A stretch of 64,000 nt of DNA. It comes from Escherichia phage 310Ecol104PP. Positions 58,905-64,000 of this stretch are shown piece by piece; the first letter of the stretch is position 1, and the number at the start of each line of letters is the position of its first letter. The stretch is taken from sequence record OR062946.1, one strand, 5' to 3'. The notes under the pieces are model-generated. The model had not been told where the DNA came from. It searched no databases and saw only the letters and a program-made list of their open reading frames with translations. Position numbers and translations under genes: made by a program.

Positions 58905-61169
58905 TCATAATTTACAGGATGAACAATCTTCAGCTTTTGGAGTTTCTATTTCATAATCATCAGTACCAGAACCATCGCGGGTATTATGATAATAGAAATT
59001 TTTTCCGCCAAAATACCAAAAATACAAAAGGTCATCAATCATTATTGACATTGGAACCTTTCCTTTTGGAAAAATCTGCGGGTCATAATATGTATTCGCT
59101 GAAGCTGATTGACATACCCATTTCAGCATAATAGCTACCTGCGTAAGATAAGGTTTATTACCTTTCTTAGCTAATTTCCACGTATAATCATAGAGGTCTA
59201 TGTTATGCTCAATATTGGGCACGACTTGATTAAAGGAACCCTCTTTTGATTCTTTAACAGAGACTGGTCCACGTGGAGGCTCGATACCGTTTGTACTGTT
59301 AGAAACTTGGGAAGATGACTCACATGGCATAAGTGCTGATAATGTGCTATTACGGATGCCAAAGAGCTTAAGGTCTTCCCGCAGCGACGACCAGTCACAA
59401 ACGTATTTTGGAGCTGCGATTTGGTCAATCTTTTTATTGTACCAGTCGATAGGTAATTCGCCTCGAGACCAACGAGTGTCTGAATAATATTCGCAAGGTC
59501 CTTTTTCTTTGGCGAGCTTAATGGATGCTTTAATGAGTCCATACTGTAATCTCTCAAATAGTTCATGTGTTAAATCGTTAGCATCTTCATAAGAAGCAAA
59601 GTTACTTGCCAGCCAAGCTGCATAGTTGGTAACACCTACGCCAAGGTTTCGACGCTTTTTAGCTTTTTCTGCTTCAGGAACTGGATATCCTTGGTAATCC
59701 AAAAGATTATCAAGAGCACGAACTTGAACTTCTGCCAATTCATTAATTTTATCTTGGTCTTGCCAGTCAAAATTATCTAGTACGAATGCAGAGAGAGTAC
59801 ACAATCCAATTTCAGCATCAGGACTATTCACATCATTTGTTGGAATAGCAATTTCACAGCACAAGTTGCTCTGACGAATAGGTGCCTTTTCACGAATAAA
59901 CGGAGTATAGTTATTCGTATTATCAATGAATTGTACATAAATCCTTGCTGTTCCTGAGCGTTCAGTCATGAGCAATTCAAATAGTTCACGGGCTTTAATA
60001 CGCTTTTTACGAATATTAGGGTCTTTTTCTGCTGCTTCGTATAATTCACGGAAACGGTCTTGGTCTTTAAAATAAGAATAATAAAGCTCGCCACCCATTT
60101 CATGCGGACTGAACAAAGTAATGTAATCGTTCTTTCCGAATCGTTCCATCATCAAATCATTCAGCTGAACACCATAATCCATATGACGAATGCGGTTTTC
60201 TTCTACGCCTTTGTTATTTTTCAAAACGAGAAGATTTTCAACTTCCAAATGCCAAATAGGATAATAAGCAGTAGCTGCGCCGCCACGAATTCCACCCTGT
60301 GAGCATGATTTAACTGCAGTCTGAAAATGTTTCCAAAAAGGAATAACACCAGTATGACGTACTTCACCCATGCCAATCTTAGAACCTTCGGCACGAATCA
60401 TACCAACGTTAATACCAATTCCAGCGCGTTTAGAGATATATTCAACAATTGAAGCAGAAGCCTTATTGATAGACTTCAGTGAATCACCTGCCTCAATAAC
60501 AACACATGAACTAAACTGTCGAGTCGGAGTACGACAACCAGCCATAATAGGAGTTGGTAATGAAATCTGTCGAGTAGATACTGCTTCATAAAAACGAATA
60601 ACATGTTTTAATCTATCAACAGGTTCATCTTGATGCAGTGCCATTCCAATAGCCATAAATGCAAACTGTGGAGTTTCATAAATTTGACCAGTGGTTTTAT
60701 CTTTAACTAAATATTTTTCTTTTAATTGCATCGCCCCGGAATAAGTAAATTCCATATCCCGTTCGTGCTTAATTTTTGATTCTAAAAATGTAATTTCTTC
60801 TGCTGAATATTTTGACAATAATTCAGGGTCGTATTTACCTGCATTTACACAGTAAGAAATATGGTCAATAAATGAACGTGGTTCATACTGCCCATAAACA
60901 TGCTTACGAAGAGCAAACATTAAACAGCGTGCAGCTACATATTGATAATCAGGTTCTTCAACCGAAATAGAATTCGCAGCAGCCTTAATGACAATAGTCT
61001 GAATATCATCAGTTGTCATTCCATCACGGAGATAAGATTTAATATTTTCATATAATTCATAAGGATCTACTGATGTTCCCTCAGCTGCCCAAGATAAAAC
61101 TTTAATAATTTTTTGTGGGTCAAAGCTCTGAGAAACACCACTACTTTTGATAACATTAATTAATTGCAT
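58905..61169 (-). CDS. nrdA: ribonucleotide reductase large subunit
   Basis: 754 aa; active-site segment SNLCCEIA. Confidence 0.95.
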   Translation of the reverse strand: MQLINVIKSSGVSQSFDPQKIIKVLSWAAEGTSVDPYELYENIKSYLRDGMTTDDIQTIVIKAAANSISVEEPDYQYVAARCLMFALRKHVYGQYEPRSFIDHISYCVNAGKYDPELLSKYSAEEITFLESKIKHERDMEFTYSGAMQLKEKYLVKDKTTGQIYETPQFAFMAIGMALHQDEPVDRLKHVIRFYEAVSTRQISLPTPIMAGCRTPTRQFSSCVVIEAGDSLKSINKASASIVEYISKRAGIGINVGMIRAEGSKIGMGEVRHTGVIPFWKHFQTAVKSCSQGGIRGGAATAYYPIWHLEVENLLVLKNNKGVEENRIRHMDYGVQLNDLMMERFGKNDYITLFSPHEMGGELYYSYFKDQDRFRELYEAAEKDPNIRKKRIKARELFELLMTERSGTARIYVQFIDNTNNYTPFIREKAPIRQSNLCCEIAIPTNDVNSPDAEIGLCTLSAFVLDNFDWQDQDKINELAEVQVRALDNLLDYQGYPVPEAEKAKKRRNLGVGVTNYAAWLASNFASYEDANDLTHELFERLQYGLIKASIKLAKEKGPCEYYSDTRWSRGELPIDWYNKKIDQIAAPKYVCDWSSLREDLKLFGIRNSTLSALMPCESSSQVSNSTNGIEPPRGPVSVKESKEGSFNQVVPNIEHNIDLYDYTWKLAKKGNKPYLTQVAIMLKWVCQSASANTYYDPQIFPKGKVPMSIMIDDLLYFWYFGGKNFYYHNTRDGSGTDDYEIETPKAEDCSSCKL

Positions 61170-61486
61170 AAGTCCTCAACTTGAAAATCGTCTTTAAACA
61201 ATCGGTTAACTATATGAGCTATTATATCACCATGACACGGCTTTGGTTTACATGTGCATCCTAGCCTCATTCCACGTAAAGGCTCTAAATGTGCTTTAGT
61301 TATTTCTCCGGATTTAATTCGACGTATAAAATCTTTTTTGAATAATTCAATGGCAGCCTCCCGGCTGCCAGCATCTTTACCGACGTAATTTCCCCAAAAT
61401 GTACCGCGGTGAATATTAACATCAAAGTCGGATTTGTATTTATTCACTACCCGGCATAGACGGCCCACGCTGGAATAATTCGTCAT
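61160..61486 (-). CDS. hypothetical Cys/His-motif protein (nrdA.1-like)
   Basis: 108 aa; motif [17 protein letters not shown]. Confidence 0.6.
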
Positions 61487-61703
61487 ATTGTTTTTCCGTT
61501 AAAACAGTAATATCGTAGTAACAGTCAGAAGAAGTTTTAACTGTGGAAATTTTATTATCAAAATACTCACGAGTCATTTTATGAGTATAATATTTTTTAC
61601 CATAAATGATAATAGGCTGTTCTGGTCCTGGAACTTCTAACTCGCTTGGGTTAGGAAGTGTAAAAAGAACAACGCCAGAAGTATCTTTAAATCGTAAAAT
61701 CAT
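61440..61703 (-). CDS. hypothetical protein (nrdA.2-like)
   Basis: 87 aa ORF overlapping the neighbour's start. Confidence 0.55.
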
Positions 61704-62560
61704 ATTGCCATTTTCCCTTTAATTGCTGGATGCGATTCATAATTTTCAAGGATAAAATCTTTCGGTTTCATGTATTCAGTTAACCAGTAAAGCTGTGTTT
61801 CGGTGTCACAATTTCCAAACTCTATAGGCCAATCAATTTTAAGTTCACACAGTTCTTTAGGCTCACGACGTAAAATTTCTTTACATTGCTCAGTATGATT
61901 CATATAGATGTGAGTATTACCACCAGAAAATATCAAATCTCCTGGGATAAGATTACACATCTTAGCCACAATATGCGCCAAGGCAGCGTACGAGGCAATG
62001 TTGAATGGCAAGCCCAAGAAAACATCTACACTTCTTTGGTACCATTGTAAATCAAGATAACCATTACGCACATTAAACTGATAGAACATATGACAGGGCG
62101 GTAATGCCATTTGATTGATTTCAGCTGGATTCCATGCTGAAACGATTTGACGTCGATCAGTTGGTAATTTTTTAATACGATCAATAGTTTCAACTAATTG
62201 ATCCACACCACCGAAATCACGCCATTGTTTACCGTATATAGGACCAAGTTCACCACTATGATATCCTAGGTCTTTAGCCTGGTTTTCATAGTTATCGTCC
62301 CAAATAGTTTTACCTTGAATAAGACTACCATGTGTGCGAAGACGTAAATCATTAACATTGGTAGAACCGGAAATAAACCATAGAAGCTCAGCAATGCATG
62401 CATTCCAGGCGAACTTCTTAGTTGTTACTGCAGGAAAACCTTTAGTTAAATCCCAGCGTAATTTAGTACCGAACAAAGCAATTGTTCCTGTGCCTGTTCG
62501 GTCATCGGTTTCATAGCCATTTTCAAAAATGTCTTTAATTAAATCTTGGTATTGTTTCAT
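61700..62560 (-). CDS. td: thymidylate synthase, uninterrupted
   Basis: 286 aa continuous ORF; active-site segment [12 protein letters not shown]. Confidence 0.95.
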
Positions 62561-62604
62561 TTAGTACCTTATATAAATTATAATACATTTTATGAAGCTA
62601 ATAA

Positions 62605-62964
62605 TCAATACGGTTTAGCATCAAATTTTCTTTCGATTTCAGGAGTGAAATATAATTCTTTACCACGTTTGGAAAAACGACCAATAATATGATAATTATT
62701 CTCATCAAACGTGATATTACCAATATCCATAGCTTTCAACCAAATATCGATATTTCTATCTAGTTTTATATCAAAATTCCAATACGGAGAACTATTACCA
62801 AAAATACTACAAGCGGATTCAGTGAAACAACTGCTATAAATCTTGTCTTTAGGAACTACTAATTGATAGACGCCTTTAATAAACTGAGGACCCTGCCATT
62901 TTGGTTGTTTCGCGTCTTTTTCTAATAGAATAGGGTAATAATTAAAATTCATATTTTCCGCCAC
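62605..62964 (-). CDS. hypothetical 119-aa protein located between frd and td
   Basis: Complete ORF MAENMNFNYYPILLEKDAKQPKWQGPQF...; no motif recognised. Confidence 0.6.
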   Translation of the reverse strand: MAENMNFNYYPILLEKDAKQPKWQGPQFIKGVYQLVVPKDKIYSSCFTESACSIFGNSSPYWNFDIKLDRNIDIWLKAMDIGNITFDENNYHIIGRFSKRGKELYFTPEIERKFDAKPY

Positions 62965-62972
62965 GTGTTATT

Positions 62973-63802
<830 letters not shown>

Positions 63803-63813
63803 ATTATCTCCTA

Positions 63814-64000
63814 TTAAAAAGGATCAGGAACATATCCACTAGCTTTAATCATTTTAACTAATGTTACCATTCCTTTGTTAACTGCTTGTGAGATTTCATC
63901 AAAAACTTCATCATTAAAAAGTTCTAGCACACCCTTCTGAACTTTTAATTTACAGCCAACAATTTCGTCATCGCCTATAGTAAATTCATTACCGCCAATT
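63814..64000 (-). CDS. hypothetical protein, C-terminal part only (gene continues beyond the window end)
   Basis: Open frame from the window edge to a stop at about 63814; hand translation ends ...MIKASGYVPDPF. Confidence 0.45.
   Translation of the reverse strand, partial: IGGNEFTIGDDEIVGCKLKVQKGVLELFNDEVFDEISQAVNKGMVTLVKMIKASGYVPDPF

Follow-up and report, generated by a model that had tools for sequence, protein, structure and literature searches.

The open reading frame between frd and td in Escherichia phage 310Ecol104PP (OR062946.1), hereafter X1, is, judging by how its codons have changed, a genuine and strongly conserved protein-coding gene and not a chance frame. On balance, we favour the view that X1 encodes a dispensable, non-catalytic binding protein at a polymorphic frd-td slot, a gene that was lost in the E. 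coli T-even clade and probably re-introduced in part of Tequatrovirus. X1 is not novel as a feature. It is an ordinary, annotated gene that T4 lacks, and it already stands as "hypothetical protein" in the records of T2, T6 and hundreds of relatives.

The window, i.e., the whole 64,000-nt stretch of DNA that was analysed, belongs to a Tequatrovirus. Its 2.3-kb region around X1 shares 98.6-99% identity with Shigella phage KRT47 and 94-98% with many further Tequatroviruses, and all genes across this region lie on the minus strand (Table 1), with the ATG of td at 62558-62560. In T4 (NC_000866), frd occupies 145109-145690 and td ends at 145112, which gives a 4-nt ATGA overlap with no intervening ORF; the earlier note thus described the T4 junction correctly. 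The longest frd ORF in the window begins at 63584, and alignment with frd of T4, T2 and T6 puts the start at ATG 63557 (MIELVFAY, where relatives have MIKLVFAY), which overlaps the stop of the upstream 81-aa ORF. This 81-aa ORF is present in T6, T2 and KarlGJung, and T6 and KarlGJung carry an additional 119-aa ORF between it and frd.1. Both are missing from T4, whose gap between frd.1 and frd is 71 nt only. Since T4 lacks both upstream ORFs as well as X1, it represents a reduced state on both sides of frd. Further downstream, nrdA.2 and nrdA.1 overlap by 47 nt in different frames (61440-61486), as they do in T4 (142951-142997). An Rfam scan of 61000-64000 returned only a below-threshold chance match to a Drosophila lncRNA.

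Table 1. Features around the frd-td junction of the window, followed by the positions of X2 and gene Y in other records.
Feature	Position	Strand	Basis or remark
nrdA	58905-61169	minus	ORF list
nrdA.1 (DUF4326)	61160-61486	minus	ORF list and Pfam match
nrdA.2 (DUF5496)	61440-61703	minus	ORF list and Pfam match
td (thymidylate synthase), 286 aa, uninterrupted, without group I intron	61700-62560	minus	ORF list, comparison with T4 td
X1-td spacer, 44 nt	62561-62604	minus	sequence
X1, most likely 115 aa (MNFNYYPILLEKD...FDAKPY), stop TGA 62605-62607	62605-62952	minus	ORF list, PHROG 1928, dN/dS
Leader from frd stop to X1 ATG, 20 nt, AATAACACGTGGCGGAAAAT	62953-62972	minus	direct reading and comparison with L011, L012 and F2
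Mini-frame ATG AAA TAA, overlapping the frd stop (ATGA)	62968-62976	minus	T4 alignment and junction comparisons
frd (dihydrofolate reductase), 194 aa, ending VYK-stop, stop TGA 62973-62975	62973-63557	minus	ORF list and alignment with T4, T2 and T6 frd
81-aa ORF (PHROG 3183, function unknown), abutting the frd start	63557-63802	minus	ORF list
X2, 113-119 aa	L003 2817-3176; L004 2790-3143; L011 4332-4673; L012 4344-4688		directly after X1
Gene Y	L023 1185-1391 (phage IME537); L019 (Ec2-ASingh); L011 4670-4879; L020 and L022 3378-3590		

The longest X1 frame covers 62605-62964 on the minus strand and reads 119 aa from a GTG (62964 to 62962). This is the complete 119-aa ORF of the earlier note; it exists and is complete, but its length is likely to be 115 aa. 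The corresponding leader in L006, L007, L010 and Pu-Krd-SF1 is GGCGGAAATATG, one A shorter, so that the GTG is no longer in frame there, and the distant homologues all align from an MNFNYY (or equivalent) start. Because the GTG frame is broken in relatives and the homologues begin at MNFNYY, translation most likely starts from the ATG at 62952. This ATG is preceded by GGCGGA (62962 to 62957), i.e., window-type X1 has its own Shine-Dalgarno-like site. The resulting 115-aa protein is mildly basic (pI 8.5) and has a mass of 13.6 kDa. It matches PHROG 1928 (function unknown) at E 9.5e-36, with residues 8-115 aligned to profile positions 2-125 of 126. Compared with some PHROG 1928 relatives, the window leader differs by the one extra A that opens the spurious GTG-extended frame, and otherwise in nothing of substance.

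The selection analysis leaves little doubt that X1 is a protein-coding gene under constraint. Among Tequatrovirus copies its dN/dS is 0-0.05 at dS values of up to 0.9. All 13 nucleotide differences from T6 are synonymous (dN 0, dS 0.25), as are 10 of 10 from T2, and the protein is 100% identical in T2, T6 and IMG/VR contigs. Omega is 0.049 (dS 0.76) against F2, whose allele is the furthest removed within Tequatrovirus, and 0.10-0.14 against two metagenomic homologues of 63-66% identity, L011 and L012. X1 is under stronger purifying selection than frd, and frd and td are no more constrained than X1 (omega 0.11-0.22 for frd, computed on a codon alignment, and 0.03-0.11 for td). Neither an equivalent ORF in T4 nor unselected disruption in close relatives, both named in the earlier note as counter-evidence, was found: T4 has no such ORF, the relatives show strong purifying selection, and of the 12 other Tequatrovirus-type copies that were read completely, one is frameshifted. 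That the ORF is a non-functional remnant or a chance frame in a variable region has next to no probability. T4 manages without X1 and the Pu-Krd-SF1 copy is frameshifted, which would fit such a remnant, but the low dN/dS at high dS effectively refutes it. Moreover, once the window is counted, 12 of these 13 copies keep an intact frame, and homologues of down to 20% identity are still found in the same position. The sole disrupted copy seen, that of Pu-Krd-SF1 (PQ249395; L015 1504-1850), is unannotated and loses its frame after residue 54, which might reflect a mistake in sequencing or recent decay into a pseudogene.

The region is also mosaic, as seen when frd, X1 and td of the window, T2, T6, F2 and KarlGJung are compared. 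Both frd and td of the window are separated from T2 and T6 by a dS of 0.5-0.86, whereas X1 is separated from them by only 0.18-0.25. The opposite is seen for F2, where the window frd is near (dS 0.22) and X1 distant (dS 0.76). These contrasting dS values indicate recombination breakpoints at or near the borders of X1.

A tblastn search with X1 found 554 phage records. In 362 of them, T2 and T6 included, the copy is at least 90% identical, and the 192 below 60% identity are from phages of Klebsiella, Enterobacter, Citrobacter and Raoultella. As 703 records matched the region by megablast, the 362 close copies correspond to about half of the Tequatrovirus-level genomes. Hence, the ORF is extra with respect to T4, as the earlier note had it, but is not peculiar to this genome. 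The PHROG 1928 proteins of T2 (BBF63391.1), T6 (YP_010067382.1), and RB3-like and KRT47-like Tequatroviruses are identical or nearly identical to X1 and have the same position and orientation. The family as a whole is small, as an exhaustive profile search of 1.8 billion cluster representatives gave only 37 clusters (50% identity), nearly all of 95-139 aa; the purpose-built family HMM scores X1 itself at E 2e-35. A word-indexed protein search, also when run with a 43-sequence profile, yielded few relatives, and none of their names was informative. Two long repetitive proteins from the profile search, P0036 and P0046, were rejected as low-complexity or Ig-repeat artefacts. The 195-aa NCBI protein P0013 was likewise rejected as a family member, since the record is chimeric or fused and only its last ~40 residues belong. 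These residues form a perfect X1-family C-terminus of the Jiaodavirus type behind a 155-aa unrelated N-terminal part without Pfam match, and P0013 represents a fused gene or else a chimera that arose in assembly or annotation.

In the window and in nine other lineages, X1 lies between frd and td on the same strand. The contexts read were Jiaodavirus Mineola, Kanagawavirus IME523, Marfavirus F48, Serratia phage 4S, four metagenomic T4-like contigs and Tequatrovirus F2. The distant homologues are 20-66% identical to X1 and directly 3' of frd in every other lineage examined, and the frd stop is overlapped by 1-17 nt in Mineola, IME523, F48, L011, L012, L020, L021, L022 and F2. IME523, F48, L011 and L012 additionally carry a tandem paralogue, X2, after X1 (HMM E 1e-17 to 1e-21), in which an additional stretch (...PTIAEYK..P..Y...) separates the first conserved block from the second. 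Since homologues occupy the slot in Jiaodavirus, Kanagawavirus, Marfavirus, Serratia phage 4S and the metagenomic contigs, the family belongs to the slot and T4 represents a loss. At the level of the T4 superfamily, the comparison thus clearly points to an X1 family that is ancestral to the frd-td slot, with the empty state as a loss. The earlier note had described the ORF as inserted; this is apt in that it is extra relative to T4, but the family is old in this slot across T4-like phages and it is T4 that shows the loss state. When all six frames of the complete T4 genome were searched with the HMM, no member of the family was found (best E 1.4), and the family therefore has no T4 name and no genetics. 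Our literature search, RB32/RB14 comparative papers included, found no named gene between frd and td.

Within Tequatrovirus, the frd-td slot has at least four states: empty (T4), X1 with a spacer (window, T2, T6), X1 overlapping frd (F2), and gene Y (IME537). PaulHMueller (74% nucleotide identity) and Gaprivervirus TH44 (67%) likewise have the empty junction, in which frd ends in VYK-stop and overlaps td by ATGA. X1 is dispensable, because T4, PaulHMueller and TH44 lack it. Gene Y of IME537 is 68 aa (MSNKLKVKDVP...YSWMN), unrelated to X1, and uses the same VYK-stop/ATGA junction of frd. In more distant T4-like phages gene Y comes after X1/X2; a Y of 69-71 aa precedes td in L011, L020 and L022, and F48 has a truncated Y-like ORF there.

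The sequences at both borders of X1 bear on how these states arose. At the left junction of the window, frd ends GTA TAT AAA TGA, followed by AATAACAC GTGGCGGAAAAT ATG. Of the first 8 nt after the frd stop, 6 agree with td codons 2-4 in the window, 5 in T2/T6 and 3-4 in F2. The mini-frame at 62968-62976 may be what is left of a T4-type frd/td junction, or it may form a 9-nt direct repeat (TAAATGAAA) with the actual start of td, and because the match is weaker in T6/T2 and F2 this evidence is suggestive only. The next 12 nt of the leader resemble the 3' end of frd in X1-bearing outgroups (GGTGAAAAGCG-ATG in L011, GGTGAAAAACGTG in L012). F2 has two extra A's, so that frd reads through to VYKNEIATGGKYEF and a stop (...GGKYEF-stop), and thus ends on the same EF-stop overlap with X1 as L012 (...VYGEKREF-stop). 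At the right junction, X1 and td of F2 are separated by just 13 nt, which resemble the last X2 codons of IME523 (TTAGGTGCAGAATG vs ATAGGTGCTAAATG). Compared with F2, the window-type allele has 31 additional nt (62570-62600), which bear the promoter-like elements discussed below.

Two histories would account for these junctions. X1 might have been re-inserted into a T4-type ATGA junction by illegitimate and homologous recombination, from a donor of the X1-X2-td type and in part of Tequatrovirus, leaving behind a td-start remnant and a piece of the donor frd tail. Alternatively, the F2-like arrangement would be ancestral, and a 2-nt loss would have created both the VYK-stop ending and the 9-nt direct repeat with the td start; T4 would then have arisen via deletion between the two repeats. 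The empty junction of PaulHMueller and TH44, together with the VYK-stop/ATGA allele of gene Y in IME537, indicates that the empty state is old in the E. coli T-even clade. We mildly favour re-insertion in Tequatrovirus as the somewhat likelier course, and the F2 allele could equally be a retained ancestral arrangement.

The td gene of T4 carries a 1017-nt intron, while that of the window is intron-less. An anticorrelation between X1 and the td intron was considered and rejected, as all four combinations exist. X1 occurs with the intron in T6, KarlGJung and FL34 (with I-TevI) and without it in the window, T2 and F2, and T4-type empty junctions are found both with and without it. There is accordingly no link of X1 to the intron. 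The window td has its intron-site equivalent at about 62012. Over the 73 nt that correspond to the I-TevI homing site of T4, it departs from the spliced T4 sequence at 20 positions, and only one of these changes is non-synonymous. Some of them fall in the cleavage-motif region (CAACG to CAAAG) and on the exon-2 side, which may affect susceptibility to I-TevI.

Neither X1 nor any of 43 family members has a match in Pfam or NCBIfam. In PADLOC, which covers defence proteins and not anti-defence proteins, 0 families match X1 at E up to 1. Across the X1 family, W19, G91, K95 and G97 are invariant and Q16, G27, Y29, F93 and F102 nearly so, and there is no conserved Asp/Glu/His catalytic set. Single-sequence AlphaFold gave a pLDDT of 40, and a 13-sequence alignment was used instead, which gave a model with pLDDT 84 and pTM 0.79. 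The model is beta-rich, with seven short strands, two helices and a terminal conserved hairpin (IIGRFxKxGxxxxF). Foldseek against the PDB gave nothing better than E 0.48, and in a viral structure library all matches of the model are to proteins from other T4-like phages that are themselves uncharacterised. OB-fold single-stranded nucleic-acid-binding domains (SSB, RPA, Teb1, S1, HIN) are among the nearest systems considered for X1.

Some records name X1 more specifically. The BASEL records MZ501089, MZ501046, MZ501113 and MZ501066 label it "putative homing endonuclease", and SF2-1 (PQ571308) labels it "putative glucose-1-phosphate adenylyltransferase". As X1 has no Pfam or NCBIfam match, no conserved catalytic set and no significant fold match, both labels are unsupported by sequence, profile or fold comparison. 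We consider it very improbable that X1 is a free-standing homing endonuclease or another selfish mobile gene that promotes its own spread. Apart from the label in MZ501089, MZ501046 and others, this explanation could draw on the variable presence of X1 between close relatives and on its distance of ~590 bp from the I-TevI cleavage region of td, from which we infer that X1 could be co-converted during intron homing. Additionally, the T4 Seg (GIY-YIG) and Mob (HNH) endonucleases are, like X1, encoded by optional genes between conserved T-even genes, and some X1 records share their label. However, none of the 43 family members has a GIY-YIG, HNH, LAGLIDADG, PD-(D/E)XK or other Pfam/NCBIfam match, nor did these libraries reveal a His-Cys box in X1. 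The earlier note's observation that GIY-YIG, HNH and LAGLIDADG motifs are missing is thereby confirmed and extended to the profile and fold level. Unlike Seg and Mob, X1 also lacks a conserved Asp, Glu or His set, its confident model matches no nuclease fold, and at 115 aa it is the shorter protein. Its fixed synteny over deep divergence is unlike that of homing genes, and the phages that carry it may have the td intron (T6, KarlGJung) or lack it (window, T2). A homing endonuclease is essentially excluded on present evidence.

With no conserved acidic/His catalytic set and a fold that matches no enzyme, X1 is most likely a non-catalytic binding protein, where "non-catalytic" is argued from the absence of motifs. 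Of the readings of its role, a generic non-catalytic binder is the best-supported statement. Sequence and model together suggest that X1 would bind a partner early in infection, without catalysis of its own. As X1 lies between frd and td and usually overlaps the frd stop, it is expected to be co-transcribed with them, and this arrangement suggests that it is probably also translationally coupled to them.

The spacer between X1 and td holds further candidate signals. The short gap with a TATAAT-like box described in the earlier note is a 44-nt gap with a perfect TATAAT on the minus strand (62582 to 62577), and it also contains TAATTT (62580 to 62575), a MotA-box-like ATTAGCTTCA (62602 to 62593) and the td Shine-Dalgarno AAGG (62570 to 62567). 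The MotA box has the consensus (a/t)(a/t)(a/t)TGCTTtA and lies 12 +/- 1 bp upstream of the TAtaaT -10 element (PMC2988021). ATTAGCTTCA departs from this consensus at one position of the TGCTT core, reading TAGCTT where TTGCTT is expected, and carries C in place of the weakly conserved t; it lies 10 bp from TATAAT and 12 bp from TAATTT. A putative td-proximal promoter of MotA (middle) or sigma-70 type in the spacer is plausible. The TATAAT box is not statistically distinctive, with 10 sites in a sigma-70 promoter scan of the region and 11 +/- 3 in shuffled sequence, i.e., no excess. Phage F2 lacks the promoter-like segment altogether.

Two classes of partner can be proposed for X1. The first would be the phage thymidylate/dNTP module (Frd/Td), for which the single argument is strict linkage. 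Conserved order is common for small T4-like ORFs (frd.1-3, nrdA.1-2), and adjacency to frd and td is for that reason weak evidence of a functional link. Like X1, T4 frd.1/DUF5417, frd.2, frd.3, nrdA.1/DUF4326 and nrdA.2/DUF5496 are small, uncharacterised early-region genes with a fixed position between nucleotide-metabolism genes, but they have no sequence relationship to X1, which is absent from T4. In its most specific form, this proposal would make X1 (and X2) a non-covalent accessory subunit of the phage DHFR-thymidylate synthase pair with a new fold, which we regard as doubtful. X1 would then bridge Frd and Td, or tether both to the dNTP-synthesising complex, and T4 would have lost it secondarily. 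The place of X1 between the two genes corresponds exactly to that of the junction peptide in the fused DHFR-TS enzymes of protozoa and plants. On the other hand, Frd and Td work without X1 in T4.

The second class would be a host target or an immune sensor, the usual binding partners of the products of optional early genes. X1 could accordingly be a host-takeover or anti-defence effector unrelated to nucleotide metabolism, i.e., a small early protein that would bind and neutralise a host protein or immune sensor, with the junction merely tolerating such cargo. We judge this possible, although on the unlikely side. X1 is small, encoded in the early region, polymorphic in presence among close relatives, dispensable in T4 and without enzymatic motifs, and its slot also takes the unrelated gene Y. 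Such a profile (small, early, optional, no enzymatic motif) is typical of accessory genes in variable T4-like regions. Against this, every lineage examined has the family in this one slot, even where identity has fallen to ~20%, whereas counter-defence genes are usually patchier and more mobile.

Collectively, our analysis fixes the start codon of X1 and corrects misleading labels that are spreading through T-even phage records, the practical value of which is small. The reduced frd-td junction of the T4 reference accounts for the lack of any study of a gene that T2, T6 and about half of the sequenced Tequatroviruses possess. If the frd-X1-td linkage reflects function, X1 would be a new component of the phage thymidylate/dNTP machinery with an unrecognised fold.
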